DNA of 64,000 nucleotides from Campylobacterota bacterium (GCA_039714575.1 JBDLJE010000003.1:294-64293); one strand, 5' to 3'. Numbered from the stretch's first letter, positions 40,974 to 63,143 are shown. Notes: generated by a model from the sequence alone, not told the origin. Program-made: numbers and translations.

Positions 40974-41723
40974 ATGCTGGAGATCATCGAACTTCTTTTT
41001 CTTGGTGCCGCAGTGGGAACACTGTCGGGCTTTTTCGGTATCGGCGGGGGCACTATTTTAGTGCCTGCACTGCTTATGATGGGGTATGACATGAAAGTGG
41101 CTATCGGCATCTCCATCATCCAGATGGTCTTTAGTTCTATTTATGGCTCGTATTTGAACCTTAAAAAAGGGACACTTGACATTAAAATGGTCGGCACGAT
41201 CGGTGCGGGCGGTTTTGTCGGTGCGCTTCTCAGCCCCTATATCATTCAGACGCTTTCAGCGACGACCTTAGAGTGGATCTTCCTCTCTTTTGTTCTTTTC
41301 GCGCTGACTAGAATGTTCATTAAGACAAAAGAGCATGCAAACGGACGCAGCGTTCACCCGGTTATCCTCTTTGTGATCGGTGTTGTACTGGGCGCCTTCG
41401 CCATCTCTATCGGTGTCGGCGGCTCTATCTTACTGGTTCCGATACTGGTCGGCTTTTTACATGTTCCGCTGAAAAACGCGGTCTCTGCAGGGCTCTTTTT
41501 TGTCGTCTTCTCTTCACTCTCAGGTGTTATCGGGTTAAGCTATACAGGTAGCATTGATTATGAGAGCGGTATTATCATCGGGTTTGCTTCCCTTGTCGGT
41601 GTTGCCGGAGGAGTCTGGTTGAAACACAGAGCTAAAGATGCTCATCACAAACTGGCATTGATACTTTTTTATGTCGGTGTCGCACTATATTTACTTTACA
41701 GATTGGTAGGTCAAAATGGATAA
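40974..41723 (+). CDS. TauE/SafE family sulfite/anion exporter
   Basis: It has 7-8 TM helices with duplicated G-rich motifs (FFGIGGGTILVPALL and ISIGVGGSILLVPIL). Confidence 0.8.
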   Translation: MLEIIELLFLGAAVGTLSGFFGIGGGTILVPALLMMGYDMKVAIGISIIQMVFSSIYGSYLNLKKGTLDIKMVGTIGAGGFVGALLSPYIIQTLSATTLEWIFLSFVLFALTRMFIKTKEHANGRSVHPVILFVIGVVLGAFAISIGVGGSILLVPILVGFLHVPLKNAVSAGLFFVVFSSLSGVIGLSYTGSIDYESGIIIGFASLVGVAGGVWLKHRAKDAHHKLALILFYVGVALYLLYRLVGQNG

Positions 41724-44538
41724 GATCAAGATCACAGGCGCGCGTGAAAACAACTTAAAAAATATCTCGTTAGAGGTTCCGAAAAACAAGCTGGTCGTCT
41801 GCACCGGCCTGAGCGGCAGCGGCAAGTCAACACTGGCATTCGGCACGTTGTATGCCGAGGGACAGCGCCGTTACCTTGAGAGTCTTTCAAGCTATGCACG
41901 CCAGTTCCTTGACCGTATCGGTCAGCCCGATGTCGACAAGATCGAAGGGTTGACGCCTGCTATCGCGATCGACCAGAAGACCACCTCTAAAAACCCGCGT
42001 TCAACCGTAGGAACGATTACCGAGATATACGACTATCTACGTCTTCTTTATGCGCGCATCGGGGTACAGCACTGCCACCAGTGCGGCAAAGAGATCTCTC
42101 AGATGTCGGCGTCCGACATCATCGATCAGGTTAAAAAACTCCCTGTGGGTGCGAAGATCGTTATCTTGGCACCGCTGATCCGCGAGAAGAAGGGGACTTT
42201 TCATGATCTTTTTGAGTCACTGCGTCACAAAGGGTATGTCCGCGCGATGATCAATGGGGTGATGACCCGTCTGGATGAAGAGATCGAACTCTCCAAGACC
42301 AAAAAACACACCATCAAAGTGGTGATCGACCGTATCGTCATTAAAGAGGACAACCAGGAGCGTATTGCCCAGGATGTCGAGAAGGCGCTCAAAGAGAGTT
42401 ACGGCGAGGTCGAGTTGGAGTTTCTCAACAATGAGGAGATGGGCTATAGAGAGCGTATTATCCACTACTCGGAGCACAACGCCTGTTTTGATTGTAAGCT
42501 CAGCTTTGAGCCGCTTGAGCCGCTGACATTCTCGTTTAACTCGCCGAAGGGCGCCTGTCCGGAGTGTGACGGTCTGGGTCTGCGTTACGCCCTTGACCAG
42601 GAGAAGATCGTTGATGCTGACCTGCCTATCGAGAAGGGTGGGGTGAAGATCATCTACGGTTTCAACAAAGGCTACTACTTCACTTTTCTGAAAGGGATGT
42701 GTGCCCACAACAAGATCGACATCACCGTACCGTTCGGCGAGCTGGAAGAGCATGAGAAAAAAGCTATCCTTCACGGCGGTATTGATGAGATCGAGTTTGA
42801 GTGGAAGAGCCACCCTATCAAACGTGTGTGGCCGGGTATTATCCGTATCGCTTACGATATGTTCAAAGATGAGAAAGAGCTGCAGGACTACATGAGCGAG
42901 AAGACCTGCAGTGTCTGTAACGGGAACCGTCTGCGCCGTGAATCACTGGCGGTCGATGTCGCCGGTAAAAAGATCTTTGAGGTCATTGAACTGCCTATCG
43001 AGAAGAGTTACAAATGGTTTGAAGAGGAGAAGAACTTTGACTTTTTGAGTGACCAGGACCAGATGATCGCGATGCCGATCCTCAATGAGATCCGTGAACG
43101 TCTCTACTTTTTATATGACGTAGGTCTGGGCTACATCACTCTTGATCGTGACGCACGCTCTATCAGCGGAGGAGAGGCGCAGCGTATTCGTATCGCTTCG
43201 CAGATCGGTTCGGGTCTGACAGGGGTGATGTATGTTCTTGACGAGCCGAGTATCGGTCTGCATGAACGCGACACACTGAAGCTCATTAGAACGCTTCGTT
43301 CTCTTCAAGAGAAGGGCAACTCCGTCATCGTCGTTGAACACGATAAAGAGACCATAGACAATGCCGACTACATCATCGACATCGGCCCGGGTGCCGGTAA
43401 GTTAGGCGGCGAAGTCGTCTTTGCCGGAACACGCAAACAGCTTGAAAAAGCGAAGACTATTACAGCTGATTACCTCTCCGGCCGCAAGATGATCGAGTAC
43501 TTTCACCGACGTCCGCAAGAGAACTGGCTTGAGATCAAAAATGTAAATGTAAACAACATTGTAGACCTGTCAACACGTCTTCCTCTGCAGAACTTTGTCT
43601 GTGTAACGGGTGTCAGCGGCAGCGGTAAAAGTTCACTTATCTTGCAGACGCTTCTGCCGACGGCACGTGAGCTTCTTAACCATGCCCGTAAGGTCAACAA
43701 GGTGGCAGGTGTTGAGATCAACGGTCTCGAGCAGCTGGACAAGGTCATTTATCTTGACCAGAGCCCGATTGGCCGTACACCGCGTTCCAACCCGGCAACC
43801 TACACGGGTGTCATGGATGAGATCCGTAACCTCTTTGCCAAGACAAAAGAGTCGAACATTCGCGGGTACACTACGTCACGCTATAGCTTTAATGTCAAAG
43901 GCGGGCGTTGTGAGAAGTGTCAAGGCGAGGGTGAGATCAAGATCGAGATGCACTTCCTGCCGGACGTTCAGGTCAAGTGTGATGCCTGTCATGGAACGCG
44001 TTATAATGCCCAGACTTTGGAGATCCTGTACAAAGGCAAAAGCATCTCTGATGTCTTGGCCATGAGCGTTGAAGAGGCCTTTGCCTTCTTCGAACCGATC
44101 CCCAAGATCCATATCAAACTCAAGACACTTGTTGATGTCGGACTGGGTTATATCTCACTGGGACAAAATGCCGTTACGCTCTCAGGTGGTGAAGCGCAGC
44201 GTATTAAACTCGGAAAAGAGCTCAGCCGAAAAGATACGGGTAGAACACTCTACATTCTGGACGAGCCGACAACAGGACTGCACTTTGCCGATGTTGACCG
44301 TCTGACAGATGTGTTGCATCACTTTGTCGAACTTGGTAACTCTGTTTTGGTCATCGAACACAACCTTGACATGATCAAAAATGCCGACTATGTCATCGAC
44401 ATGGGTCCAGAGGGCGGTTCAGGCGGTGGTGACATCATCGATGAAGGTTCTCCGGAGTCGATGGCTGTGACTTACAAAAAGAGCGGCTCATATACAGGTG
44501 AGTATCTTGCAAAAGAGTTGGCTCTGCACAAAAAATAG
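41716..44538 (+). CDS. uvrA: Excinuclease ABC subunit A
   Basis: It is 940 aa with two Walker A motifs (GLSGSGKST, GVSGSGKSS), zinc modules (CHQCG, CPECDG, CEKCQGEG) and LSGGEAQR twice. Confidence 0.97.
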   Translation: MDKIKITGARENNLKNISLEVPKNKLVVCTGLSGSGKSTLAFGTLYAEGQRRYLESLSSYARQFLDRIGQPDVDKIEGLTPAIAIDQKTTSKNPRSTVGTITEIYDYLRLLYARIGVQHCHQCGKEISQMSASDIIDQVKKLPVGAKIVILAPLIREKKGTFHDLFESLRHKGYVRAMINGVMTRLDEEIELSKTKKHTIKVVIDRIVIKEDNQERIAQDVEKALKESYGEVELEFLNNEEMGYRERIIHYSEHNACFDCKLSFEPLEPLTFSFNSPKGACPECDGLGLRYALDQEKIVDADLPIEKGGVKIIYGFNKGYYFTFLKGMCAHNKIDITVPFGELEEHEKKAILHGGIDEIEFEWKSHPIKRVWPGIIRIAYDMFKDEKELQDYMSEKTCSVCNGNRLRRESLAVDVAGKKIFEVIELPIEKSYKWFEEEKNFDFLSDQDQMIAMPILNEIRERLYFLYDVGLGYITLDRDARSISGGEAQRIRIASQIGSGLTGVMYVLDEPSIGLHERDTLKLIRTLRSLQEKGNSVIVVEHDKETIDNADYIIDIGPGAGKLGGEVVFAGTRKQLEKAKTITADYLSGRKMIEYFHRRPQENWLEIKNVNVNNIVDLSTRLPLQNFVCVTGVSGSGKSSLILQTLLPTARELLNHARKVNKVAGVEINGLEQLDKVIYLDQSPIGRTPRSNPATYTGVMDEIRNLFAKTKESNIRGYTTSRYSFNVKGGRCEKCQGEGEIKIEMHFLPDVQVKCDACHGTRYNAQTLEILYKGKSISDVLAMSVEEAFAFFEPIPKIHIKLKTLVDVGLGYISLGQNAVTLSGGEAQRIKLGKELSRKDTGRTLYILDEPTTGLHFADVDRLTDVLHHFVELGNSVLVIEHNLDMIKNADYVIDMGPEGGSGGGDIIDEGSPESMAVTYKKSGSYTGEYLAKELALHKK

Positions 44539-44552
44539 GTAAAGGTTGGTTC

Positions 44553-47500
44553 TTGATCTCATTTGCTATCTCTGATGTTGTCCGTATTGCCGCACAGAGT
44601 GATTTTAATGAGGGGATGGACTATTACCGCCAATCACGAAGCATTGTTAAATCTTTCGAGACGGTCGCTGAAGGGCACATGGTCGTTACCGCCTTTACCA
44701 AAGGCAGTGCCAACTATGTCCAGTCCATCAGTGTCAGGGTAGACGGTAACAGCGTGAGTCTAAGCGGACGCTGTTCGTGTGAGAGTGCCCAAGACTGTAA
44801 ACACGTAGTCTCTGCTGCACTGACCTTTATAGACCAAAACAGCACAGCGCCAAGCAGAACAACAGAGAAAAAAAGTGACGCCCAAAAGTGGCTGGAACGT
44901 TTGGAAAAGTCACTTACGCCCGAAGCCGTTAAAAAATCCATTCTTATCTACCGCATCAGCCCCTCGCCGACCAAAGGCAAGCTGCAGCTGGTCTTCTACC
45001 GAGCCCGTCTGCTCAAAGAGGGCGGTTACGGCAAGCAGAAGCGTATTGAGTTCCATCAACTGCGTTCAAGCTTTATGCAGCGTGACTTTCTGACGGACAG
45101 TGACAGAGACATCCTGGAGCTGTTCGGTGCTTTAGAGTCCAAAGTGGAACGCAATGCACACATAGAGGGTGAACTTGGCGGTCTGCTTTTGGAGAAGATG
45201 GTACGAAGCGGCAACTGTTACTGGCACGGCAACCGCAACCGTGCTCTGCAGTGGGGTGAGACACTCTCAGCATCCTTGCTCTACAAAGAGGAGGGCAAAG
45301 GTCAGTTTCGTCTCTCTTTCGATTTGAACAAGCACTGTGAACCTCTTGTCACAACACCTTTCTCTTATGTCGATACCAAAAACCATGTAGTCGGTCATCT
45401 GAGAGTAGACGGTATTGAACCGCAACAGCTCGGTCTGTTGTTGCAGGCACCGCTTTTGACACAAGAGGAGTTAGAGACATTTTCTATCAAAGCTATTCAG
45501 ACCCTGCCTTCATTGCCTCTGCCTGACACCTTGGATGTGAAAGAGTTGAAAGTAGAACCAAAAGCCAAAATAAAACTGTTTGCAGCGGATGCTCAACACC
45601 AACTGAAACTTGGTTTTCTTTATGACGAATATGAGTTGAACGGCTGCAGTTCTCAGAAGAGTAAAATAGTCAAAGAGGATGATGAGTATCTGAAGATCAT
45701 TCGTGATATTGGCTTTGAAAAAAGTGCTAAAGAGCAGCTGGAGTCGGCAGGATTTTTGGCTGACGGATCATGCACTTTCAGAGCGGATGGAGACAGTGAT
45801 AACACCATAGATACCTGGCGGCGATTTATACAGGTTCACCTTCCTGTTTTAGAAGAGAACGGCTATGAGGTCGAGGTCGAAAAAAGCTTCCTTTTTCGCT
45901 TTGAAAAGGGCGGTGAGATCACCCTGAATGTTGAGCAGAAAAAGAGCTGGTTTGATGTAGGGATGGAGGTCGATTTTGAAGGTTCCAAACTCAACATCCT
46001 GTCTCTTGTCAGTTCACTGCTGGAACAGAACGTTGACATTGAAAACCTGCCTGAAACGATCTCTATTGAGGTCGAAGAGAACCATTTCATCACATTAGAC
46101 TCTGTACAGTTCAGACCTATACTCAAGACTTTGGTGGCACTCTACAAAGGGGAGCGGGTAGAGCAGCTGCATATTGATCAATATGCAGCGCATCTGCTCC
46201 CTAAAGCAGGGAATTCTGTAAAAATATCTGGAAGTGGACAAAAAGCGATAAAAAGGCTTAGAAAAGAGCTTGAAAGCTTTGAGGGCATCGAAAAACTGGA
46301 GCAGGCACAAGGTCTGAAAGCAACACTTCGCGGGTACCAGCAAGAGGGGCTGAACTGGCTCGGCTTTTTAGAGCGTTTCGGTTTTGGCGGTATTCTGGCA
46401 GATGATATGGGGCTGGGAAAGACTTTGCAGTCCCTTGCCTTTTTACAGCGTCTCAAAGAGCAAGAGAAGTTGACTCTTCCAGTGCTGATCGTAGCACCGA
46501 CTTCACTGCTTGGAAACTGGAGAAACGAGGCGAAAAAATTCACGCCTGATCTGAGTTTGGAGATCCATCACGGACTCAAACGAAACAAGAAAATACATCT
46601 CGGTTTTCAGAGCGATATTGTCATCACGACCTACGCACTTTTAAGTCGTGATCTTGCTCTTTTTGAGAAGATGAACTTCAGCTATTTTATTCTCGATGAG
46701 GCGCAAAATATCAAGAACCAAAAATCCAAAGTCCACAGTGCCGCTAAAAAGATAAATGCGCGAAACTCGGTTGCACTGACAGGTACCCCGATGGAGAACC
46801 ATCTAGGTGAATTGTGGGCGATCTTCGATGTGGTGATGCCGAACTTTTTAGGGGACTATAAGACTTTTAAGACCTTCTATCAGACACCGATAGAACAAGA
46901 ACACTCACAAGAGCGTCAAGAGAGTCTGCGTGACAAACTGGCGCCGTTTATGCTGCGCCGTACCAAAGAGAAGGTGGCGACAGAACTGCCGCCTAAGACT
47001 ATTATGACCCGTTCAGTCGCTTTCGAGGGCGACCAGGCGAAGCTCTATGAAGGTATCCGCATATCGATGGAGAAGAAGGTGCGCGAGGTCATTGCCGAGA
47101 AGGGTCTGGGTCGAAGCCACATCACGATCCTGGATGCTTTGTTAAAACTGCGTCAGGTCTGCTGTGATCCGCGTCTGGTACCGCTGGCAGAGGCACAGAA
47201 GGTCAAACACTCTGCCAAGCTTGAGATGTTGCTGGAACTGGTAGAGGAGCTTTTGGAAGAGGGCAGACGTATCCTCATCTTCTCGCAGTTCACCTCCATG
47301 CTCTCTATCATCGAAGAGCAGCTTATGCAGAGAGAGGTCTCTCTTACCAAATTGACAGGCAGCACCCAAAACCGAGAGAAGGTCATCGACAAGTTCACAA
47401 GCGGCGAAGCCTCGGTATTTCTCATCTCCCTAAAAGCCGGAGGCGTAGGTCTAAACCTCACCCAAGCCGACACCGTCATCCACTACGACCCATGGTGGAA

Positions 47501-47714
47501 CCCTGCCGCCGAAGACCAAGCCACCGACAGAGCTTACCGCATAGGACAGGAGAAACCGGTCTTTGTCTACAAACTGATCATCGAAGATTCTGTCGAAGAG
47601 AAGATCTTGGCCTTGCAAGAGCAGAAAAAACAGCTGACATCAGGGCTTTACAGTGATGAAAAAGATGATGTCCCAATATTGAATGCTGAGAGTTTGTTGG
47701 AGTTGTTTAGTTAG
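44553..47714 (+). CDS. SWIM zinc-finger / SNF2-family helicase
   Basis: It has a TTG start. The SWIM motif is CSCESAQDCKHVVSAAL. SNF2 motifs are ILADDMGLGKT, ILDEAQNIKN, ALTGTPMEN, LIFSQFT, GGVGLNLT and DRAYRIGQ. Confidence 0.9.
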   Translation: MISFAISDVVRIAAQSDFNEGMDYYRQSRSIVKSFETVAEGHMVVTAFTKGSANYVQSISVRVDGNSVSLSGRCSCESAQDCKHVVSAALTFIDQNSTAPSRTTEKKSDAQKWLERLEKSLTPEAVKKSILIYRISPSPTKGKLQLVFYRARLLKEGGYGKQKRIEFHQLRSSFMQRDFLTDSDRDILELFGALESKVERNAHIEGELGGLLLEKMVRSGNCYWHGNRNRALQWGETLSASLLYKEEGKGQFRLSFDLNKHCEPLVTTPFSYVDTKNHVVGHLRVDGIEPQQLGLLLQAPLLTQEELETFSIKAIQTLPSLPLPDTLDVKELKVEPKAKIKLFAADAQHQLKLGFLYDEYELNGCSSQKSKIVKEDDEYLKIIRDIGFEKSAKEQLESAGFLADGSCTFRADGDSDNTIDTWRRFIQVHLPVLEENGYEVEVEKSFLFRFEKGGEITLNVEQKKSWFDVGMEVDFEGSKLNILSLVSSLLEQNVDIENLPETISIEVEENHFITLDSVQFRPILKTLVALYKGERVEQLHIDQYAAHLLPKAGNSVKISGSGQKAIKRLRKELESFEGIEKLEQAQGLKATLRGYQQEGLNWLGFLERFGFGGILADDMGLGKTLQSLAFLQRLKEQEKLTLPVLIVAPTSLLGNWRNEAKKFTPDLSLEIHHGLKRNKKIHLGFQSDIVITTYALLSRDLALFEKMNFSYFILDEAQNIKNQKSKVHSAAKKINARNSVALTGTPMENHLGELWAIFDVVMPNFLGDYKTFKTFYQTPIEQEHSQERQESLRDKLAPFMLRRTKEKVATELPPKTIMTRSVAFEGDQAKLYEGIRISMEKKVREVIAEKGLGRSHITILDALLKLRQVCCDPRLVPLAEAQKVKHSAKLEMLLELVEELLEEGRRILIFSQFTSMLSIIEEQLMQREVSLTKLTGSTQNREKVIDKFTSGEASVFLISLKAGGVGLNLTQADTVIHYDPWWNPAAEDQATDRAYRIGQEKPVFVYKLIIEDSVEEKILALQEQKKQLTSGLYSDEKDDVPILNAESLLELFS

Positions 47715-47803
47715 CTTTAATACTTTTATTCACTATATTAGGTACATTTGAATTCTATATATAATAAAACATGTTAATATATATTTTTTAATAGGAGTTT
47801 AAA

Positions 47804-48778
47804 TTGAAATCAATCTATTTGTTTTTGTTAATACCTTGTGCAATACTTTTTGCTTCAGAGAACTATCCGCAAATTTTTGAACAGCAGGGAACACCATTGT
47901 TTGAAGCGGTTCATAAATTTCAAAAATTAAAGCATATCCCTGTAATGGAAAAAGCTGTTGAACGTTATGTAGCAGAAGCAGGTGAAGCTTTACAATTTGG
48001 CAAAATAGCCGATGCTGCTGTAGAGAAGAAAGAAAAAGTAGCATACTTGAAAGTATTACGCTCTTTACAGAAAAATTACAATAAAACAATAAGCTTAGTA
48101 AAGAAACATCTTGTAGATGCAATGAAGCAAAACGATAAGGATATGTTTCTAACACTTGTTGAATCAGATCTTGATTTTGGCAATAGTCATTTGAATGAGA
48201 AGATGATTGTATTTTATCAGCAACACAGTAAAGTATTACATAGTGAAAGTATGGACAAACGAGTCCTGGATCAAAAAGCTGCTGATACTTCTGCTGCTGA
48301 GTTTGCAGGTGATGGAATGAGTCATGAAGACGAATGTAATATTGGCCCCTTACAACACAATCTAAAAAACATCATTAATAAACCTGCAACTTTTTATGCG
48401 ATGGTATTAGTGTCTGGTAAAGATGATTGGTTACAAATTAATGATCAGTACTATTCTATTATTAAAGATACGCAATACACTATTGCATGTAAATATTACG
48501 AAGAGACTGGTATCGCCAGAACATATTTGTTCCCTCTAAAAAAACCATTTACTATAGAAGCCTACATTACACGATTAGAAGCGGAAAAATTTGCAGCAAT
48601 GATTTTTATGAGACCTGACATCACAGCTAAATACCGTCAAGCTGCTTCGCTGAAAGATACTGATCTGTATCTCAAAAAGCTTACATATGTTATGCAAAGA
48701 CACAGTAAATACATTATAGCAGGTCCTGAGATAAAGCCGTATGTAGAAAGTTCAGATGAACTTTTATCCGGACCATAA
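47804..48778 (+). CDS. Hypothetical secreted protein (islet cargo)
   Basis: It has a TTG start 6 nt after an aggag SD and a signal peptide (MKSIYLFLLIPCAILFASE). I recognised no family. Confidence 0.65.
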   Translation: MKSIYLFLLIPCAILFASENYPQIFEQQGTPLFEAVHKFQKLKHIPVMEKAVERYVAEAGEALQFGKIADAAVEKKEKVAYLKVLRSLQKNYNKTISLVKKHLVDAMKQNDKDMFLTLVESDLDFGNSHLNEKMIVFYQQHSKVLHSESMDKRVLDQKAADTSAAEFAGDGMSHEDECNIGPLQHNLKNIINKPATFYAMVLVSGKDDWLQINDQYYSIIKDTQYTIACKYYEETGIARTYLFPLKKPFTIEAYITRLEAEKFAAMIFMRPDITAKYRQAASLKDTDLYLKKLTYVMQRHSKYIIAGPEIKPYVESSDELLSGP

Positions 48779-48825
48779 TAATGGAAATATTGTGTAGAAA
48801 TTTTCAGTTATTGAAGGCTTAAATA

Positions 48826-51492
48826 ATGAAACATCTGTTTATTCTAATTTTTTTTACTACATCACTTTTTTCTTTTTATCTATCAGACCGCCTGCCAAAA
48901 GAGGCTGTCCAGTTAGTTGATTCATTTGACTGTTTTTCTAAAGATGACAAAACTGTAATGTACACTTATTTACTGGCACTGAAATATCGAATGGAACATG
49001 TTAATGACAGAGATGCTTTAGTTAAAAGTGATTTAGATTACTGGAGATTATGGCATTTAGTCAGTGATATTGAACATGACTGCTCTCTTTACTATAAATT
49101 CAGTTATATATTAGAGGAGACGATCACTTCTTCACCAGAGGATAAAACAACTCTAAAAAAACTACGGCGAGTTGAGGGCCGCATACGTACTGACGGTTCT
49201 TCTGAATCCTCCGCACGTATGAGTAAATACGATGCAGGTCTACGAAAAAAGCTATTACAGGACCCTCCAAAGTTTAAAGTGTCGGCTAAAAACCAATTAC
49301 TGAATGATTATAATTTGACATCTATCAAACACTATCCAAAATTGAGTATTCCCCAAAATATTTATGACGCTATCAAAAAGCAAAATATTTCAGGTAAGAA
49401 AGAAGATATACTTTTTCGTTACGCTTTTTTGAAAGAAGAGATGTTAAGGAACTATGATCAACCAAAGAAGAGACATGAGATAAAGCAGGAGCTATTGTAT
49501 ATTCAAGAGTGTCAGAAATATCACAAGATCTATCTGAAAGGTGAGTTTTACCATAATTTTAAACGTAAACTTGCCAACAGAAGTTCTCAATATAGTAATT
49601 ATTATCCAATTAAAAATGAGTTTTTACCTAAAGAGGTGGAAGCATATTGTGAACACAATATTACTAAAACAGAAGTAACCACTTTCTATCCTAAACAAGA
49701 AAAGAAAATACCCAAAGTAAAAAAAATCATTAAACTCGAAAACTTAAAAGCATTTTTAGAGCAATACAATGATGATGCAACTAAAAAGAAATATGCTGAA
49801 CAATATTTTAATTTGATGAAAGAGCAATTGGAAAAGTCTTCAACACCAACACCCAGCTTAGAATCATTGAAATTAATAAGATTAAAAAACTGTTTAGTTG
49901 CAGGAGACGATAAAGAAGATTTTAAATTAATTATGTCTCGTGTCAAAGATTTTCGTTTGGAAGGTATAAAAGAAATATTTTATTCAAATATTTTCAATAG
50001 CCAAATGTGGTGGATGACGACAATAAGAATGAAGATAGATCAAGAGGGAGAAAGCGAAGAGTTAAAACATTTTTTTGATTGTAATCAGACATCAGTCACT
50101 ACTAGACCTGCTGCCTTAATACAAACTAAGACATCAAACTCAAAAGACAAATCCCGTTTTTCCGCATCCAACATGAGAAATGCATCTTTCCAAAGAGATG
50201 AGATATTTAAATATTATGCGGGAACATTTGAAAATAAGCCTACTCCTGAAATGAATAATGAAAAGGCGATTAAAGCAGGTTTGCTTTCAAAGAAAATGCT
50301 TGACGCTTATGGGAAAATCAAAGTGCCTTTTGGGGATAAAATAGTTATCAAAGGGATGCCAAAAGGCGGTCTCAGCTTGACATATTATGGTATCCCAAAA
50401 GGTAAGTTGTGCTCTGATTTTATTATGTTTGGTAAAACAGGAAATGAAACTATATTTTATAATAGCAAGGCTTATGATGGGTTGGATTATATACTTCTCA
50501 ATGGACATAAGATCAAAGTCAAGCATTATGTCAGAAAACATGTAGAAAGGCTCTGTTCAAAAGAGGACAATAATATAATTAGTTTTGTCAAAGAACAGAC
50601 TATAACTAAAAAAGAGTACAAGGGTAGTAGAAAACTTGATAGTGCTTTTGGAAATGTAAAAAAAATAAATTATGAATATAGTCTGGATGATAAGATAAAA
50701 ATGTACGTAAAAAAACTGCCGCGCAAATATAAACATAGTCACAACAAAATACTTTCTCCTAGTGGAAAATATTTAGCAATAGGATATCAGGGTAAAGAGA
50801 TCTGTATTTGGGACGTAATAGAAAACCAATTCGTAAAAATAATAAAAATATCGTACAAAGAATTTGGTGGTCTTGACACGTTTTTATCAGACAATAAAAC
50901 TATTATGTTGGTCGGTAAAAAAATACATTTTCTAGATACAGATACAAACAAAATAAGTGGTGAGATAGAGCCTAGATTTACGAAGTCCAAAAAATCATTT
51001 AGTAGGCCGCGCATTACCTCATGGATTGAGTCCCCTGATGGGAGTACACTCTATATTGCTGGCAATAAAAATACAATAGAGCGTTGGAATATAAAGAAAA
51101 GTAAGCTAGGTTCACGCGAGATTAGCTACATAGACCAAATTGAAGATAAGGAAGTAAAAGAAGTAGGGGTACTTGTTTTTGATCCAAGGGATAGAAATAT
51201 ATTAATTATAGGTTCTACATTTAATAAAATTAAATTTTTGGATATTAAACATAAAAAGGTAGTTAAGACATTAATTGCAGACAAGCAAATGAGTTGTAAA
51301 AATATCACGTTGAGTGATGACCATAAATATATTCTTGCTGTTGGATGGGGTGCATTTTTATGGCGCTTAGAAGATGGAGAACAGCTTGATATTATTTCGG
51401 GAAATAGAATATCAAAAGGTGTGTTTTTACCAAATTCATCTAACTTTGCTACTATTGGTGAAGAAGTCAGTGTTTGGGAAATTAAAAAATAG
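48826..51492 (+). CDS. Hypothetical 888-aa secreted protein with a C-terminal WD40-like beta-propeller (islet cargo)
   Basis: It has a signal peptide ([17 protein letters not shown]) and a Lys-rich helical N-terminal half. From about aa 640 on there are repeated strand patterns ending in W-D/N/E dipeptides ([31 protein letters not shown]). Confidence 0.65.
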
Positions 51493-51515
51493 ATATATTC
51501 GCACGTGTTAGATCT

Positions 51516-51761
51516 GACACCGTCATCCACTACGACCCATGGTGGAACCCCGCCGCCGAAGACCAAGCCACCGACAGAGCCTACCGCATAGGACAAGACA
51601 AACCTGTCTTTGTCTACAAACTGATCATCGAAGATTCTGTTGAAGAGAAGATACTTGCTTTGCAAGCACAGAAAAAGCAGTTGACTTTAGGGCTTTACAG
51701 TGATGAAAAAGATGATGTCTCAACATTAAATGCTGAGAGTTTGTTGGAACTGTTTAGCTAA
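51516..51761 (+). pseudogene. Displaced 3' fragment of a SWIM-SNF2 helicase gene (last 81 codons plus stop)
   Basis: It translates to [81 protein letters not shown]. Only 5 aa differ from the C-terminus of the intact gene. There is no start codon and no upstream homology. Confidence 0.85.
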
Positions 51762-51770
51762 ACGCTGACA

Positions 51771-51823
51771 GAACACTTTGTATACTATTGCCTTACTCGC
51801 CAAAATAGTCATACAAAGTGTTC
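51771..51823 (+). terminator. Strong hairpin just downstream of the displaced SNF2 3' fragment (possibly the ancestral terminator)
   Basis: Perfect 13-bp arms gaacactttgtat (51771-51783) and atacaaagtgttc (51811-51823) are extended by actatt/aatagt. No clear T-run follows. Confidence 0.4.
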
Positions 51824-52013
51824 AGACATTGGCAATTTCCTTCTAAACTACACATCAATGTAAGAACTATTTTCATACTTTTTTAAAATTTAGGACAATC
51901 TTCTTTTAGCTTGATATATTTTGTTGAATAGTAATTTAAAAAATGTGTTCAACTATTATACTGATTAAGGGTAATGACTATAGAATGTGTACTAATGAAT
52001 AGTTAGGTAAAGC

Positions 52014-52718
52014 ATGAAAATCAAATATCTTTTCTTTGTACTTGTATTTATAATTGTCACTGGTGTTGGCTACGGCTATTTTTACATAGATAGAATATTT
52101 TCAATCTTCATAGGCACTGAAACACCTCCTTTGGCCAAAAAAGGCTTCAAAGGAAAATTGCTTCCAAGAACGGACGATGAATTTCGCCGTGGCGTTTTTT
52201 ATTCAAAACTTTACCGGGATACCAACGGCTCAATAAACAATGAATACTTTGAAGATTTGTTGGAGCGTAAAAAATGGGATCAAAGGCATAGTCTAAGTAA
52301 AAAGAGCGATGATCAATTAAGGCAAGAAATCATGGATACAATGTTGCAATACAAGGACTATTATAAAATGAATGCAGTTGATGAAATAAACTTCGTTTTT
52401 CAGTCAAATAATTGTAGGTTCGACACTTATTATCAGAATAATCTTATCGTTAATACCGGTGGAGCAGGTTTAACAGAATATCCAAAAGACTATAAATATG
52501 AACGCTACACTATAGATATAAATGATCCAAGTCCCTTTAGAATCAAAATGGATGAAAGTACAGCAAATAATTACATCCAAAACGGAGCGTGTGTAGTAGC
52601 AACTCATTTCAAATTAAATAAGGACTTCAGTACAAATATTACCAAAGCAGTAGTCTTGGATATGGACACAAATGAATCAATATTTGTGTATACACCGCAA
52701 GATAATGAGACAGATTAA
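52014..52718 (+). CDS. Hypothetical protein with an N-terminal TM anchor
   Basis: It is AT-rich, has the TM helix YLFFVLVFIIVTGVGYGYFYI, and matches no family I recognise. Confidence 0.55.
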   Translation: MKIKYLFFVLVFIIVTGVGYGYFYIDRIFSIFIGTETPPLAKKGFKGKLLPRTDDEFRRGVFYSKLYRDTNGSINNEYFEDLLERKKWDQRHSLSKKSDDQLRQEIMDTMLQYKDYYKMNAVDEINFVFQSNNCRFDTYYQNNLIVNTGGAGLTEYPKDYKYERYTIDINDPSPFRIKMDESTANNYIQNGACVVATHFKLNKDFSTNITKAVVLDMDTNESIFVYTPQDNETD

Positions 52719-52738
52719 ACCTAACAACTCAGTCGAGC

Positions 52739-52770
52739 CAATCAAAAACCCGCGAGCGGCTTTTTGATTG
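52739..52770. terminator. Bidirectional hairpin terminator between convergent genes
   Basis: The arm caatcaaaaa(cc) pairs with (gg)c-tttttgattg. The A-run and T-run flanks allow termination in both directions. Confidence 0.55.
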
Positions 52771-52927
52771 CTCATTTTAGCTGTTTCCCAAGGTCCTCGT
52801 TGGTAACCCATATATGAGATTATGTAAAGAGTCAGTCTGTGTTTAGTCGATTAAATACTTGTATGCATCCCAAACAAGGACGTTGGGGACGAGAAAAGTC
52901 AGGATAAAAAAGAAGAGCATCCTCTCC

Positions 52928-54301
52928 TTATTTGTAACGCCAGATAGCCATATCTTCATTAACAGCATTATCACTGATACCTGTTGTAACTAGGTTGCCT
53001 TTAGCGTCAATGACTACAGCGTATCCCATGTCATCACGATCGCCTCCTGAAGCATTATGGTCTGTAACATACCCGACACCGTTGAAAGTGGTGTCCAGGG
53101 TTCCGTCACTCCTGTAGCGCCAGATAGCCAAGTCGTAATCATTGCTGTTTTGACTTGTTCCTGCCACTACGATCTTGCCGTTAGCATCTATGGTTACAGA
53201 GTACCCAATATCAAAACCGGCACCTCCGGCAGCCCCGTTATGCATCACATATCCGACACCGTTAAACGTAGTGTCCAGACTTCCATTGCTGTCATAACGC
53301 CAGATAACCATGTCGTAGGTGTTAATAAGGTTTGTACTATAGCCGGCCACTATGATCTTTCCATCAGCATCTATGGCTATAGCGTATCCACCATCATTAC
53401 TGGAGCCTCCGGAAGCATTATTGTCCGTGACGTAACCGACACCGTTAAAAGTACTGTCCAGACTTCCATTGCTGTCATAACGCCAGAGAGTCATAGCAAG
53501 ATTGTTGATATTTTCGCTGGCTCCTGCTACAAGAACCTTACTGTCCGCATCAGTCGTTATGGCGTTTCCATAATCATGACCGGAACCTCCGGCAGCACCG
53601 CTATGTACCGCAAAACCGACACCGTTAAAAGTACTGTCCAGACTTCCACTGCTGTTATAGCGCCAGATGACCATGTCATATTTGCCACTGCTGTTTCTGC
53701 TAGACCCGGTTACCAGGATCTTACCGTTGGCATCAATGGTTACAGCCTTTCCATAATCATAAGTACCGCCTCCGGCAGCATCATGATGTGTTACGTATCC
53801 GATGCCATTAAAAGTTGTATCTATATCTCCATCACTGTTATAACGCCAGATGATCATGTCCAGCGTTGCACTGTACCCTGCTACTACGATCTTGCCGTCA
53901 GCGTCAAGCACCACAGAATTCCCGTTGTCGTTACCGCCGTTGTTTCCGGCACTGCTGTCATCCGTAACATAGCCGGTACCGTTAAAGGTAGTATCCGGGG
54001 TACCGTCACAGTTGTAGCGCCAAATGACCATGTCATCATACAAAAGAGTATCGGAAAAACTGCTTCCGGCCACTACGATCTTGCCGTCAGCATCGATGAC
54101 CAGGCTTCGTCCCTCATCATCACCGGAACCTCCGGAGACATTGTCGTCTGTGACATACCCGACACCATTAAACGAGGGGTCCAGCTCTCCTATGGCACTG
54201 TTTGTGCCGCCTGCATCACTGCTGTCACTACTGCACGCTGTCATCACAACCACTGCCGAAACCGGTGCCAATATTGTCAATATATTCTTCATAATCTTCA
54301 T
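52928..54301 (-). CDS. Lipoprotein built of delta-60 repeats
   Basis: It has a lipobox (VVMTAC). About 8 units of 50-60 aa follow the pattern FNG.GYVT....GG..D.G.A..ID..GKI.VAG.S.....DM.IWRY.S.GSLD.TFNG, characteristic of the delta-60 repeat family. Confidence 0.75.
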   Translation of the reverse strand: MKIMKNILTILAPVSAVVVMTACSSDSSDAGGTNSAIGELDPSFNGVGYVTDDNVSGGSGDDEGRSLVIDADGKIVVAGSSFSDTLLYDDMVIWRYNCDGTPDTTFNGTGYVTDDSSAGNNGGNDNGNSVVLDADGKIVVAGYSATLDMIIWRYNSDGDIDTTFNGIGYVTHHDAAGGGTYDYGKAVTIDANGKILVTGSSRNSSGKYDMVIWRYNSSGSLDSTFNGVGFAVHSGAAGGSGHDYGNAITTDADSKVLVAGASENINNLAMTLWRYDSNGSLDSTFNGVGYVTDNNASGGSSNDGGYAIAIDADGKIIVAGYSTNLINTYDMVIWRYDSNGSLDTTFNGVGYVMHNGAAGGAGFDIGYSVTIDANGKIVVAGTSQNSNDYDLAIWRYRSDGTLDTTFNGVGYVTDHNASGGDRDDMGYAVVIDAKGNLVTTGISDNAVNEDMAIWRYK

Positions 54302-54541
54302 CGGAACTCCTTGTACGTCATAAAAGAGAAACTCTCTCTTTTACCTATTATACAACTTAGTTCCAGAAGTTATTATAAGTGTATGACAAATATAAAAAAA
54401 CATATTGGAGCTGATAGTTAATTTGAAAGAAATAATATTGTAACTTTTTGGCTAGAGCATGCGAGACTTGCTATAAAGGCAGAGGTGAACGTTATTGCTT
54501 TCTATTCTCTTCGAAGGGGATGGAAGACATATAATAATGTC

Positions 54542-54808
54542 TTACGCCGAACGGGCGTTTTCAAACATTCCGCGTGCTTGGTAGTTCTTTATCTTGACCA
54601 AGTGGGGGAAGAACTCTTTTTTGGTGCTGTCGCGCAGTATCTGTATCTTGCAGAACTCTAGTGCTTCATCGATGTCGAATCGTATGGCACTTTCATGCCC
54701 AAGTTCATTTTCATGTGTAACAGGGGTGTGGGCACTGATCCACTGACTTAATCGAACAGCAAGTTCTTGATTCATTATGGCCGCTATTTCATTTGACGAT
54801 ATAAACAT
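54542..54808 (-). CDS. Hypothetical small protein
   Basis: It is an 88-aa ORF with no recognised motif. Confidence 0.4.
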   Translation of the reverse strand: MFISSNEIAAIMNQELAVRLSQWISAHTPVTHENELGHESAIRFDIDEALEFCKIQILRDSTKKEFFPHLVKIKNYQARGMFENARSA

Positions 54809-54964
54809 AAGTTGTCCTCTATTTTTGAGGGTAGTTTATATAACTTGTATTGCGAGAGAGATACTGAAACATAACACTAGCGTTACGAAAGTGGGAGTAA
54901 AAGTTTTAGTAGTTTGAGTTTTGGGTGCGTTCCCATCAAAAACGATGGGAAGGAGTAGGGAAGC

Positions 54965-55354
54965 TTAGTAAGCGAGTGCTGAAAGCCTTAACTGCGTGTA
55001 TTGATGAACGATGTTCTCCATTCTGATGCTTGAAAACACGGCAACGATGAAAGTGAGAACAAAGGCATAACTGTAGTCAAAGTTCAGTACATACGAGATA
55101 GATGAAAATGCAAACAACGGTATGGCTACAAAGAAGACACCCAGCAGAAGCTTGATGTTCAACTTAACGTTTTTCATAAAAGCCGAACAGCTGCCTTCTC
55201 TACAGACAAGAGGATCTTCCTCTAATGTGTTAAGCTCATTTGAGAGGTTGATCTGCAGACCTCTCTTCTTATACTTGTTTTCACTTTTTTCGACTATCGT
55301 CTTCAAACTGTTAAGTAAAAAACTGTCTGTTACGTTTAAAAATAGATTTTTCAT
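54965..55354 (-). CDS. Hypothetical membrane protein
   Basis: I prefer the internal ATG at 55354, which is preceded by an aaggtg SD, over the track start at 55420. It has two C-terminal TM helices. Confidence 0.45.
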   Translation of the reverse strand: MKNLFLNVTDSFLLNSLKTIVEKSENKYKKRGLQINLSNELNTLEEDPLVCREGSCSAFMKNVKLNIKLLLGVFFVAIPLFAFSSISYVLNFDYSYAFVLTFIVAVFSSIRMENIVHQYTQLRLSALAY

Positions 55355-55649
55355 AACATTCACCTTTATCCTCTTCGAAGTGTATCTTATATTATAGCAT
55401 TTAATAAGTAAAAACACCATACATACAGGGTAATTAAGAGAGCCGCTCAGCGTTTAAACGGCGTTCGTACGATTTTCGTTATGCAGAACAAAATATTACA
55501 ATTGGAGTCTCTGAGAATGTACCGTCTCGGTATTTTTTGAACATCGTTTTCGCTGCAACGCTGATCCATGAACTTGTCGGAGCGTTATATTTTGCAAATG
55601 TCAAAGGAAGCTTGATAAGCGGGGGACAGATCTCTCTTTCAGGGCTGTT

Positions 55650-56213
55650 TTATAACCTGTTTTTTACTACCTGGGCTGTTGCAGTATCTGCAGTACAAAC
55701 CTGAGAAGTCAACGGCTCGATCAACTCAACGTGAAAAGATTGGCCTAACAGCAGTTTTTTTAATGCCAACTGGCGGGCATTTATAAACGCTACATCATCT
55801 GTGTGTTCGATTTCGGACAGGTTTGTGTTGTAGCCATCTGGTATAAAAATGTTGCCTATAGAGAGTTTTTTTACGCTGTTTGAGGGGCTGATCTTAATGC
55901 GGCCGCTAACGCTGGCTTCGTAGAAATGTATCATAAACCCGCTATGATAAGCAATTTTGGTTGTCCATGCAGCCTTCTTATCATTTAGATGATGGTCCTG
56001 ACTGCTAACGGTGTTGTAGACCTTTCCGTTGATCAGCAGGGTCGTGTCTTCAATAATATGGCCTTTGCCGCATCGTATTGCTTTTTCTGTGATGCTTTCA
56101 GTCGTGTCGTGCAGACAGAGCTTTTCATCAAACCCACTTACCAGTGTGACTGTGTTGCCAAGTATAGATTTATAGTCTTTTATTCTTGCCGGATTGGTTA
56201 TTTTTACAGTCAT
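55650..56213 (-). CDS. Hypothetical protein
   Basis: It is a 187-aa ORF with no recognised motif. Confidence 0.5.
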   Translation of the reverse strand: MTVKITNPARIKDYKSILGNTVTLVSGFDEKLCLHDTTESITEKAIRCGKGHIIEDTTLLINGKVYNTVSSQDHHLNDKKAAWTTKIAYHSGFMIHFYEASVSGRIKISPSNSVKKLSIGNIFIPDGYNTNLSEIEHTDDVAFINARQLALKKLLLGQSFHVELIEPLTSQVCTADTATAQVVKNRL

Positions 56214-56465
56214 CAGCCTTCTTTCGAAAATTACCCATATTATAATGGAGTTTTTGAAAAAACCATAATATTGATGAATTTAATGTGAATTTTTACAGCA
56301 AATGATAGTTATTGAGTAGTATTTTGACATTATTGCTTCAGCAGTGGGTTTTTTTACGATGTTAAATTTCTGATATGAAGATAAAATAAAAGAGCCTCAT
56401 GAAAAGAGAGCGTTTAAACTAGGTATAATTCCAAACATTATTCCAAACTCTATAAGGCTATTGCT

Positions 56466-57383
56466 ATGTCAACATATATCTTCGGACACACTAATCCGGA
56501 CTCTGACTCTATTGTCGGGGCTATCTCGCTTTCATACTTGAAAAACCAGCTTGGTGAAGAGTGTGTTCCTACACGTCAGGGCAAGATCTCTGCTGAGACA
56601 GAGTTCATCTTAAACAAGTTCGGCGGCGAGGTTCCTGAGCTTAAGACCTCGTATGCAGGCGAAGAGGTCTACATCATAGACTTCTCTGACTATGGTCAGG
56701 CACCCGATGACATTAAAGAAGCGACGATCCTGGGTATTGTAGACCACCATAAACTGGGCGACATCATCACGTCAACACCGTTGGAGTGCTGGATCAGACC
56801 GATAGGCTGTTCAAACACGGTGGTCTATGAGATGTACAAGTCATTTGATGTTGAGATCCCTAAGAACATTGCCGGGATGATGATGTGTGCGATCCTCAGC
56901 GATACGGTGATCTTTAAGTCACCGACCTGTACGAAGGTCGATACCAAAGCGGTCAAAGAGCTTGCCAAGATAGCGGGTGTCGAGGACTACAAAGCAGTGG
57001 GTATGGAGATGTTCATTGTCAAGTCGGCAGTTGAGGGTGCGACAGGCAGAGAGCTTAATACACGTGACTACAAGCCGTTTGACATGAACGGCAACAAGAT
57101 CGGTGTAAACCAGCTTGAGATGATAGACATCAGCGCCCTTGACGACAAAAAAGAGATGATCTTCGAAGATATGCAGAAGATGAAAGAAGAGGAGGGGCTT
57201 CATACGATGATGGTTCTTCTGACAGACATTATGAAAGAGGGCTCTCAGATACTTGTTCTCAGTGACGATGCCAGTAAAATAGAGAGTGGACTTAATGTAA
57301 AACTGGAGAACAACGAAGCGTGGCTTGACGGTGTACTCAGCCGTAAAAAACAGATCATCCCTTTTATCCAACCGCAGTTTTAA
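56466..57383 (+). CDS. ppaC: Manganese-dependent inorganic pyrophosphatase (family II, DHH)
   Basis: Motifs are IFGHTNPDSDSI, VDHHK and DHHA2-like SDT/GVNQLE. It is 305 aa. Confidence 0.9.
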   Translation: MSTYIFGHTNPDSDSIVGAISLSYLKNQLGEECVPTRQGKISAETEFILNKFGGEVPELKTSYAGEEVYIIDFSDYGQAPDDIKEATILGIVDHHKLGDIITSTPLECWIRPIGCSNTVVYEMYKSFDVEIPKNIAGMMMCAILSDTVIFKSPTCTKVDTKAVKELAKIAGVEDYKAVGMEMFIVKSAVEGATGRELNTRDYKPFDMNGNKIGVNQLEMIDISALDDKKEMIFEDMQKMKEEEGLHTMMVLLTDIMKEGSQILVLSDDASKIESGLNVKLENNEAWLDGVLSRKKQIIPFIQPQF

Positions 57384-62478: not shown

Positions 62479-62588
62479 ATCAAATACCTTTTAGATTGTA
62501 TAACGTTTGTCGTGACCGATAGTTTTCCGGTAAACTATTGCGTTCCACGTATTTATTATATATTTTGATATAAAAACACTTCAATTAA

Positions 62589-63107: not shown

Positions 63108-63143
63108 GATATAGTTTCCTTTTTAATATATAACGTTCGACTT

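Follow-up and report, generated by a model that had tools for sequence, protein, structure and literature searches.

Integrase-mediated islands and integrative elements restore the 3′ end of a gene or tRNA, as exemplified by ICESt1 and ICESt3 in fda and by the cis-mobilisable CIME remnants. Another relevant process is homology-facilitated illegitimate recombination (de Vries and Wackernagel, 2002; Prudhomme et al., 2002; Meier and Wackernagel, 2003), on which the sequential-displacement model for T6SS effector–immunity arrays and Rhs/CDI orphan modules was built (Kirchberger et al., 2017; PMC5361080). Restriction-modification cargo and near-identical repeats (e.g., 417/423) characterised the described cases of insertion with long target duplication (Nobusato et al., 2000; Furuta et al., 2010; PMC2853133), which were mainly from naturally competent bacteria, including epsilonproteobacteria such as Helicobacter and Campylobacter. 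Horizontal-transfer hotspots flanked by core genes have also been described (Oliveira et al., 2017; PMC5635113).

Here we analyzed a window, that is, a whole stretch of 64 kb, from a Sulfurimonas-like Sulfurimonadaceae bacterium. In this window, the 3′ end of an SNF2 helicase gene is duplicated around an insert of 3801 bp. The features are as follows.

44553–47714, + strand: SNF2/SWIM-type helicase gene, intact, 1053 aa, with Pfam SNF2-rel_dom and Helicase_C; proposed homology anchor
47469–47714, + strand: copy A, the working last 81 codons plus TAG; would have arrived with the cargo
47715–47803, + strand: left junction and intergenic region, an AT-rich stretch before cargo gene 1 that is putatively promoter/RBS-like
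47804–48778, + strand: cargo gene 1, 324 aa, with a signal-peptide-like N-terminus
48826–51492, + strand: cargo gene 2, 888 aa, with a C-terminal WD40 propeller and an N-terminus resembling a signal peptide
51493–51515, + strand: 23-bp spacer and right junction (…GTTAGATCT/GACACC…), an adjacency unique within the window
51516–51761, + strand: copy B, a displaced, untranslated SNF2 tail of 81 codons plus TAA; putative resident 3′ end
51771–51823, + strand: strong hairpin directly 3′ of copy B, predicted by folding
52014–52718, + strand: 234-aa membrane-anchored ORF without a family match, in the AT-rich tract past copy B

Copies A and B align without gaps and are identical at 223/246 positions. 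The 21 differing codons comprise 15 synonymous changes, five replacements (E28D, E51A, S58L, P69S, and I70T), and the stop codon (TAG in A, TAA in B); our recomputation gave exactly the counts of an earlier, sequence-only reading of this DNA. The abrupt end of homology reported there was also evident, as identity beyond the repeat edges was at the chance level (14/60 upstream, 26/80 downstream). The longest exact run common to the two copies is 35 bp, and the pair is the only dispersed direct repeat in the window, the other repeat families being intragenic tandem repeats. The duplicated part corresponds to the conserved region from helicase motif VI to the stop codon. Before the repeat, the SNF2 body ends …CTCACCCAAGCC, and its junction with copy A reads …ACCCAAGCC/GACACC…, while cargo gene 2 is joined to copy B at AGATCT/GACACC. 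Relative to copy A, B-specific variants include C36, C66, A81, C84, and T90 of the repeat. A 36-nt block with 32–36/36 identity across all sampled lineages begins at the left edge of copy B. Copy B had been noted as missing from the ORF track, and indeed no + strand ORF of at least 50 aa covers it; its frame is closed by a stop codon 10 codons upstream and has no start codon after that point. Because they are not ORFs, such gene-end fossils are missed by annotation pipelines.

The two tails also differ in how they end. Copy A ends AGT TAG, and the tail of the cargo-bearing relative L105 ends GGT TAG. Copy B ends AGC TAA, as in L082 and L084, relatives without this cassette. The hairpin follows copy B and is absent 3′ of copy A. 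The 81-nt segment 51755–51835 folds at −26 kcal/mol (z = −5.4; as good in 0/200 shuffles), and the hairpin sequence occurs a single time in the window, with no occurrence in the loci compared. It is probably the original terminator of SNF2. A hairpin after the stop codon as the norm in cassette-free relatives was considered and rejected, since it was clearly significant in L083 only and thus gives weak support at best. A promoter/terminator scan of the window remained at the shuffle level.

Nei-Gojobori analysis of A versus B gave dS of 0.43, dN of 0.032, and dN/dS of 0.07, a signature of purifying selection. When all changes were simulated as neutral, so few replacements were obtained in 0/20000 cases. 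The model of an in-place duplicate, with B drifting neutrally and A under selection, had P = 2e-4. Neutral decay of copy B was at most about 1.5–3%. The working and dead tails of another relative, L086, behaved similarly (dS 0.62, dN 0.057). Since dN/dS is 0.07, A and B appear to have been working gene ends in different lineages before their juxtaposition, which agrees with the original proposal that both evolved as functional coding sequence. The 9% divergence together with purifying selection indicates that one copy arrived as part of the insert instead of being duplicated from the target.

The insert had been described as more AT-rich than the helicase gene, and profiles of GC and GC3 were in agreement. 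GC content is 0.34 and 0.32 in the cargo genes versus 0.48 in SNF2 and 0.435 in the whole window, and GC3 is 0.26–0.28 in the cargo genes versus 0.54–0.61. The AT-rich tract moreover runs beyond copy B to about 52900 (GC 0.34 for 51762–52900), taking in the ORF at 52014–52718. This ORF, which has no family matches, may be an older acquisition, and its membership in this event is uncertain; no further (third) tail fossil was found beyond it within the window.

The cargo consists of two predicted secreted proteins. Cargo gene 1 had no match in Pfam, NCBIfam, PADLOC, or PHROGs, and its homologues formed only four other clusters (five including its own) among 5.8 billion proteins. Its AlphaFold model (pLDDT 64, low confidence), a helical/alpha-beta protein, had no fold match in PDB. 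Cargo gene 2 has a helical N-terminal half and the C-terminal WD40 propeller in the predicted structure, and its family is Campylobacterota-wide, with 32–69% identity and many genomic contexts. It had no match in plasmids, phages, or IMG/VR, and a metagenome scan with the cargo gene 2 alignment yielded 14 loci, with cargo gene 1 or the SNF2 tail in 0/14. The stretch ATGTTAATATATATTTTTTA..GGAG before cargo gene 1 is kept in the window, L086, L105, and L107. As part of the accessory gene pool of the same family, the cargo cannot be called alien, which qualifies the foreign allele plus cargo that had been suggested for this insertion.

All ORFs from 40974 to 57383 were scanned for recombinases with Pfam, NCBIfam, PADLOC, and PHROGs. 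The insert and its surroundings yielded no integrase or transposase, as already remarked from the sequence, and no signal of phage, plasmid, or defence genes, and the structure models of the cargo were not recombinase-like. The five fossil-bearing loci, namely, the window and four relatives, gave no recombinase (for L082, by its annotation listing). PADLOC and Pfam gave no restriction-modification system in the cargo, no toxin or immunity families were detected, and no tRNA or Rfam family was detected in the window. A defence island, based on the PADLOC assignments 'mad3' (upstream gene) and DpdE/ZorD (SNF2), was considered and rejected: with 1370 bits in NCBIfam, the upstream gene is a genuine UvrA, and, like SNF2, it is a core gene in conserved synteny.

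The SNF2 relatives in Sulfurimonadaceae are 75–85% identical at the protein level (closest, 84–85%), and an exact look-up of the SNF2 protein of the window matched no record. TauE-UvrA-SNF2 synteny is kept in five relatives. The DNA upstream is syntenic, and the DNA 3′ of SNF2 differs in every relative examined. Tail repeats were present in 5/59 SNF2 loci tested, the window included. This control set was obtained by a scan of genome contigs with the full SNF2 protein; as a finder of relatives, the same scan was dominated by the universal IHYDPWWN motif, and the relatives it gave were all of 33–57% identity. P0010 and P0018, two truncated-looking SNF2 genes considered as insertion variants, proved to be frameshifted calls. 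A sliding profile of nucleotide identity against five relatives, which are too distant (12–25% diverged) to be informative, gave no breakpoint in the SNF2 body.

Displaced 3′ fragments lie 3′ of a gene with a conserved 5′ part in the window (one tail fossil), L084 (two, stacked), and L082 (one or two). A betaproteobacterial locus, L027, also carries a tail fossil, with 137/142 identity running 56 bp past the stop codon. On the left, the fossils are bounded at codons 1, 7, 13, about 24–30, 51, and 54 of the 81-codon tail, and the cargoes at the L084, L082, and L027 loci are unrelated. The variation of the boundaries from codon 1 to codon 54, with no fixed crossover core, argues against site-specific integration.

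The layout of SNF2, cargo gene 1, cargo gene 2, and a dead tail was also found in another lineage, in the independent assemblies L086 (JGI) and L087 (Logan). There, the repeat begins at codon 13 and follows another spacer, and two stop codons are present in the tail. In L086, the spacer is 86 bp versus 23 bp in the window, and the boundary is at codon 13 versus codon 1. L105 has the cassette without a recognisable dead tail in the available 143 bp. The DNA downstream of cargo gene 2 in L086 and L105 is unrelated to the junction sequence of the window. The left junction is conserved in all cargo-bearing lineages and the right junction is different in each, as predicted by joint transfer of the donor tail and cargo with a fresh right join at every event.

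In L084, the second fossil, the following intergenic region, and the 3′ end of TetR are collinear with the corresponding stretch of L082, which runs from its working tail through the intergenic region to TetR. This collinearity indicates that the displaced copy in L084 is the resident one and that L082 represents the empty site; the comparison places both repeats on one single-copy target. Empty sites in related genomes had been named as a check in the sequence-only reading. No exact one was found for the insertion in the window, as no SNF2 body was followed directly by tail B, and the L084/L082 pair provides an analogous case.

We consider it moderately probable that the cassette was imported by homology-anchored, recombinase-free recombination together with a replacement tail, which displaced the resident tail. 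The donor would be a related Sulfurimonadaceae lineage with the two-gene cassette directly 3′ of its SNF2 helicase gene, whose tail differed from the resident tail by about 9% at the nucleotide level. The incoming DNA would consist of the 3′ end of the donor helicase gene plus the cassette. On the left side, homologous recombination would have taken place inside the helicase gene, and on the right side the DNA would have been joined to the resident gene where its last 81 codons begin. This right join may be an illegitimate one, made by homology-facilitated illegitimate recombination that probably followed DNA uptake; if the fragment was circularised, a single crossover would give an equal outcome. 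The imported tail (copy A) would keep the helicase gene intact, and the resident tail (copy B) with its hairpin would have been shifted 4 kb downstream, where it would now be a recently dead fragment.

The assignment of B as resident and A as imported is favored by the AGC TAA end and the retained hairpin of B and by the T TAG end that A has in common with L105. A point against the import is that the left edge of copy B falls at the start of the near-invariant 36-nt block, which a random illegitimate join does not predict. Our literature search gave no data on natural competence in Sulfurimonas. Two mechanisms had been put forward at the outset, an element integrating with its own replacement 3′ end and homology-facilitated recombination. 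The replacement 3′ end is kept in our reading; between the routes, the homology-facilitated one is favored over the element because no recombinase turned up in the five fossil loci and the boundaries differ between events.

A unit of tail A, cargo, and tail B might instead have pre-existed in the donor and entered by an ordinary RecA double crossover, with the left part of A and the right part of B pairing with the single tail of the recipient. The duplicated tail would then be the vehicle of transfer by transformation, and copy B would be renewed at each transfer with functional sequence of the recipient. We regard this as unlikely, although the intact state and very low dN of copy B speak for it, as do the 36-nt block at its left edge, an ideal pairing site for diverged DNAs, and the presence of the cassette with a dead tail in a second lineage. 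The dead tail of L086 also fits, being decayed in its left part (pN 0.144, two stop codons) and resembling a recently functional foreign allele in its right part (pN 0.059, pS 0.52), but this contrast is based on small counts (3 synonymous and 6 replacement changes versus 18 and 7), and lower synonymous divergence in the left part is general in this gene region. Moreover, such a unit predicts an inherited boundary, whereas the boundary and spacer differ between the window and L086, and L105 has no recognisable dead tail in its 143 bp. If true, the cassette would carry both homology arms and could insert into any genome with the intact gene. It would then represent a class of recombinase-free cassettes spread by transformation, with the 3′ end of a core gene as the landing pad and with datable tail fossils.

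Somewhat less probable still is an in-place insertion with long target duplication, in which the copies were identical at birth. Ordinary homologous recombination with a related strain bearing the cargo would later have exchanged the working copy and some of the cargo for the allele of that strain. Such duplications, whose repeats span hundreds of bp and which lack mobility genes, are documented in epsilonproteobacteria and other competent species (PMC2853133), and the fossil of L027, with its high identity past the stop codon, looks like a true target duplication. In the window, however, this explanation needs two events, and dN/dS of 0.07 rejects simple divergence in place. Furthermore, copy A differs from B right up to its last codon and stop codon. 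The replacing DNA would therefore have had to bring the tail plus cargo, and the explanation collapses into the import of cassette and tail described above.

A site-specific integrative element at the 3′ end of SNF2, with a replacement tail in its attP and either mobilised in trans by an integrase gene located elsewhere or decayed with loss of its integrase, is a yet more doubtful explanation. The topology is that of classical attL/attR, with direct repeats, gene restoration, and low-GC cargo, and the tail repeats in 5/59 SNF2 loci indicate that the site is clearly favored. Against it, no recombinase gene was found in the five fossil loci, and the boundaries spread from codon 1 to 54 without a common core. 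In addition, the repeats are 60–246 bp and diverged, unlike short exact att cores, and the cargoes are mutually unrelated. Searches of phage, plasmid, and IMG/VR collections gave no hit.

An assembly artefact, that is, a mis-join or strain-chimeric threading of two tail alleles in a metagenome-assembled contig, is very improbable: although the source contig, apparently of 74.4 kb, has no close sequenced relative and alleles of 91% identity could stem from co-occurring strains, the 35-bp longest exact run is too short to be collapsed or bridged at usual final k-mer sizes, cargo gene 2 and the tail meet in a novel adjacency, which has to be present in the reads, and two other samples (L086 and L087) independently yielded assemblies with the same architecture.

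Under the preferred reading of import with a replacement tail, this locus shows the addition of accessory genes beside a core gene without mobile-element machinery in uncultured sulfur-oxidising Campylobacterota. The fossils can be ordered and roughly dated, and thus they provide a readable record of successive gene gains at one hotspot, as in the stacked fossils of L084. A systematic search for gene-end fossils downstream of conserved genes could gauge how gene gain in competent bacteria divides between homology-anchored import and mobile elements.

Compared with integrative elements, the locus likewise has gene-end direct repeats flanking an insert, a presumably insert-borne copy that restores the gene, and compositionally distinct cargo. 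It is different in that no recombinase was found, and in the variable boundaries, the long diverged repeats, and the unrelated cargoes at the same site. Like the hotspots flanked by core genes, it is an interval next to a core gene that holds different accessory genes in each relative and no recognisable mobile elements; unlike them, its boundary lies inside the last 81 codons of the core gene, and datable gene fossils are left behind.

Insertion with long target duplication is similar in that the insert is <20 kb, a direct repeat of >30 bp of the target is formed, mobility genes are absent, and GC is often lower (here, 3801 bp and 246 bp for insert and repeat). The cargo in the window, however, is two secreted proteins by prediction, and the repeats are 9% different with a signature of purifying selection. 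Target-derived, near-identical repeats are expected from such a duplication; the window does not conform (P = 2e-4), whereas L027 does (137/142).

As in the sequential displacement of T6SS and Rhs arrays, a conserved upstream gene would serve as the anchor, a new 3′ end with downstream genes would enter, and the old 3′ end would be shifted downstream; repeated events stack the old ends (L084 and L082), and no integrase was found. In those arrays, the displaced ends are variable toxin tips with immunity genes, whereas the helicase tails displaced here are conserved and encode nothing new, unrelated accessory genes make up the cargo, and part of the resident gene is duplicated, not deleted. The scar is recurrent in related genomes, and it apparently reflects recombinase-free gene gain and not a new kind of mobile element.

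The 3' end of the SNF2 helicase gene occurs twice in the window, with two cargo genes (the cassette) between the copies.

44553-47714 (+), SNF2 helicase gene
47469-47714, copy A, working SNF2 tail of 81 codons plus TAG
47804-48778, cargo gene 1 (324 aa), signal-peptide-like start (by eye)
48826-51492, cargo gene 2 (888 aa), signal-peptide-like start (by eye)
51516-51761, copy B, displaced untranslated SNF2 tail
51771-51823, hairpin directly after copy B (fold -26 kcal/mol, z = -5.4)

We recomputed the gap-free alignment of 47469-47714 with 51516-51761 and obtained the figures of the sequence-only reading: 223 of 246 positions are identical, and the 21 differing codons comprise 15 synonymous, five amino-acid-changing and one stop codon (TAG versus TAA). 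Homology ends as abruptly as had been claimed, with identity at chance level at once outside the repeat (14/60 upstream, 26/80 downstream), and the pair is the sole dispersed direct repeat within the 64-kb window. No forward-strand ORF of at least 50 aa contains copy B, in line with its reported absence from the ORF track; its frame differs from that of the preceding gene and has a stop 10 codons upstream. Composition profiling likewise bore out an AT-rich insert: GC is 0.32-0.34 and GC3 0.26-0.28 over the 3801 bp that separate the copies, compared with 0.48 and 0.54 in the helicase gene and GC 0.435 in the whole window, and the AT-rich tract runs on beyond copy B to about 52900.

Both tails carry the signature of coding sequence under selection. 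By the Nei-Gojobori method, dS between copies A and B was 0.43 and dN 0.032 (ratio 0.07), and six or fewer replacement changes arose in 0 of 20000 simulations of random substitution. An in-place duplicate in which copy B drifted neutrally while copy A stayed under selection was rejected (P = 2e-4), which upholds the earlier claim that both copies evolved as functional coding sequence in different lineages. The copies share derived residues (16 protein letters) found in no database relative. Identity is 91% between the copies but no more than 75-81% between either copy and the tails of relatives; the two alleles therefore stem from two closely related lineages. Because there are 5-6 replacement changes, some on the branch of copy A, neutral decay of copy B since displacement would be at most about 1.5-3%.

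The same order of parts (SNF2 3' end, cargo 1 homologue, cargo 2 homologue, displaced SNF2 tail) was found in a JGI metagenome contig (L086) and in a Logan assembly of a different sample (L087). Their SNF2 3' end is 87% identical to that of the window over 274 aa, and their cargo homologues are 68.5% (cargo 1) and 65.5% (cargo 2) identical. Their dead tail begins at codon 13 rather than codon 1, after an 86-bp spacer unrelated to the 23 bp of the window; it has two in-frame stop codons and is identical to its own working tail at 171/199 positions (86%), with mostly synonymous differences (dS 0.62, dN 0.057). In the window and in L086/L087 alike, the two tails of one genome resemble each other more than those of the other genome. 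Cargo proteins are about 66% identical between the two lineages, whereas the dead tails have undergone neutral decay of only 3-7%, which indicates that the displacements were independent and much younger than the split of the cassettes. In L105, another Logan contig, the SNF2 stop is followed by cargo 1 and cargo 2, and the 143 bp after cargo 2 contain nothing recognisable as a tail. In a further contig, cargo 1 is followed directly by a short C-terminal remnant of cargo 2 (L107:1030-1119; DIIRGNRISRGLLL); deletions have hollowed out cargo 2 there, which shows that the cassette can decay. The left junction is common to all these lineages (SNF2 stop, then about 80-90 bp with an AT-rich promoter/RBS-like stretch, then cargo 1), whereas the right junction differs in each. 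L105:3930-3968 and L107:1075-1119 share AGTGTAGAACAGAA(G/C)CTGCAACAG after the cargo, one frame of which reads DSVEQKLQQL and recalls part of the tail (17 residues) with a serine codon of the other family; this is either an eroded tail fossil or chance, and both contigs end there.

At 59 loci we searched the DNA downstream of SNF2 for repeats of the gene's last 450 bp; five loci had such tail repeats. Those at relatives without this cassette (L084 and L082, the latter the complete genome of Sulfurimonas sp. HSL3-7) and at a betaproteobacterial locus (L027) are as follows.

L084:12579-12770, fossil of about 58 codons with a frameshift, after an 817-bp insert encoding a 141-aa ORF
L084:20924-21001, fossil of about 27 codons, 9.2 kb downstream, immediately ahead of TetR and a ketoacyl synthase gene
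L082:15353-15445, fossil of 30 codons, after TetR and the ketoacyl synthase gene
about L082:16294-16328, weak 12-codon motif VI fragment, one gene beyond the 30-codon fossil
L027:13354-16280, cassette between repeats of the gene end at an Albidiferax SNF2 orthologue (137/142 identity, reaching 56 bp past the stop)

The second L084 fossil, the intergenic DNA and the TetR 3' end are collinear with the working SNF2 tail, intergenic DNA and TetR of L082, and L082 thus keeps the ancestral arrangement. L084 gained about 9 kb in front of its resident tail, in two or more steps that each brought a new tail; the displaced copy is the resident one there. The two fossils stacked behind a single intact SNF2 gene record two or more insertions in succession, as in a stratigraphy. 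Since a fossil also lies beyond the TetR/ketoacyl synthase pair of L082, that pair may itself be an older insertion. The L027 repeat flanks a TctC-GntR-amidohydrolase cassette of native GC, in which no recombinase was found; its displaced copy has an internal deletion. A search for empty sites, proposed by the sequence-only reading, gave no exact one for the window insertion; for L084, the collinear L082 locus served as an empty-site comparison. We regard these recurrent, stackable fossils as the most useful result.

Upstream of the repeat lie a TauE-family gene, a bona fide uvrA (NCBIfam, 1370 bits) and the 1053-aa SNF2 helicase with its SWIM-like zinc-finger region, whose closest proteins, from Sulfurimonas and other Sulfurimonadaceae, are 75-85% identical. 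Five relatives share the syntenic block Dus, DUF502, TauE, UvrA, SNF2; DUF502 is missing in the window, and its TauE, Dus and adjacent ORF show 75-91% protein identity to theirs. Behind SNF2, each of the five has different DNA (TetR and ketoacyl synthase in L082, a DUF1254 protein in L083, a small ORF and PAS sensor in L084, a cadherin-like giant gene and transposases in L085), and none of the window's downstream genes is present at these loci. The SNF2 3' end is therefore a synteny break and gene-gain hotspot in Sulfurimonadaceae. Two SNF2 orthologues, P0010 (L081) and P0018 (L085), are called truncated, with C-termini out of frame; this looks like assembly frameshift error rather than biology, and the L081 contig also stops inside the gene.

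Other features of the window were noted.

118-4602, 1494-aa ORF with a cadherin domain, LVIVD repeats and 132-nt tandem units in two blocks, GC dropping to about 35-37% in the second; L085 has a similar cadherin/LVIVD giant gene immediately after SNF2
52928-54301 (-), 457-aa delta-60/DUF5122 beta-propeller repeat protein (units about 180 nt), the first normal-GC gene past the AT-rich tract
53057-54421, long antisense ORF overlapping the DUF5122 gene, probably spurious
62000-64000, second strongly AT-rich stretch (GC 0.29-0.35) with a Sel1-repeat gene at 62589-63107 (-), which may be another island

Cargo 1 had no family match in Pfam, NCBIfam, PADLOC or PHROGs. Only four other homologue clusters (five including its own) were found among 5.8 billion proteins, and its structure model (pLDDT 64) matches no solved fold. 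In cargo 2 the N-terminal half is helical and the C-terminal part is a confidently modelled WD40 propeller; the family of ~900-aa proteins to which it belongs extends across Campylobacterota (32-69% identity) in many unrelated genomic contexts. Neither protein resembles a recombinase, and no cargo match was found in PADLOC, PHROGs, plasmids, phages or IMG/VR, consistent with the reported lack of an integrase or transposase in the insert. Our working guess is that the cassette encodes a periplasmic or surface protein pair. Cargo GC3 follows host GC3 yet stays far below it (0.27 versus 0.54 in the window, 0.41 versus 0.80 in L086), which suggests that the cargo has long resided in hosts of similar composition and has not fully ameliorated. 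A cargo 2 homologue (57% identity) without cargo 1 lies between a BrnT/BrnA toxin-antitoxin pair and rve integrase fragments (L088:470-4902); the family is also present in conventionally mobile contexts.

Displaced tails begin at codons 1, 7, 13, about 24-30, 51 and 54, the cargoes at the fossil-bearing loci are unrelated to one another, and a recombinase was found at none of these loci; taken together, these findings speak against an integrase acting site-specifically on a fixed core. The conserved left and variable right junctions fit incoming DNA that would bring the donor's SNF2 tail and the genes downstream of it, recombining homologously within SNF2 on the left and joining wherever possible on the right. 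We therefore favour homology-facilitated illegitimate recombination, which has also been put forward for T6SS and Rhs modules that were displaced (PMC5361080); the outcome would be the same if a circularised fragment had entered by a Campbell-type single crossover. Of the two mechanisms offered by the sequence-only reading, homology-facilitated import is thus favoured over the integrating element. Insertion with a replacement 3' end is supported by the two functional alleles, the recurring layout and the resident displaced tail of L084. If L084 and L082 are a guide, copy B, which ends AGC TAA as theirs do, and the strong hairpin would be the resident end, making copy A and the cargo the probable import; copy A ends ..T TAG, like the cargo-bearing L105. 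Long repeats flanking inserts may be quickly lost by recombination, which may be why only short, diverged tail duplications persist.

ALTERNATIVES Alternatively, the donor may already have had a tail-cargo-tail arrangement that entered by double crossover with both tails as arms. Copy B begins at a block suited to this: the first 36 nt of the repeat (47469-47504; 51516-51551; 12 residues) are 32-36/36 identical in all sampled Sulfurimonadaceae, versus only 75-89% for whole tails, with synonymous sites unusually conserved exactly at the copy B start. The dead tail of L086, decayed on its left and allele-like on its right, points the same way, but the boundaries in the window and L086 differ, against one inherited junction, and we consider this route improbable. 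Long target duplication in place (PMC2853133) fits L027 but in the window needs a second event, equal in effect to the favoured import, and we judge it less probable still. A mis-join in assembly, the case raised against the repeat, is unlikely because the longest exact run shared by the copies is 35 bp and the same architecture was assembled independently in L086 and L087.

Read as homology-anchored import displacing a gene end, the window is a further instance of known processes and is related to insertion with long target duplication. In this case the gene is a conserved helicase of Sulfurimonadaceae and the cargo is novel.
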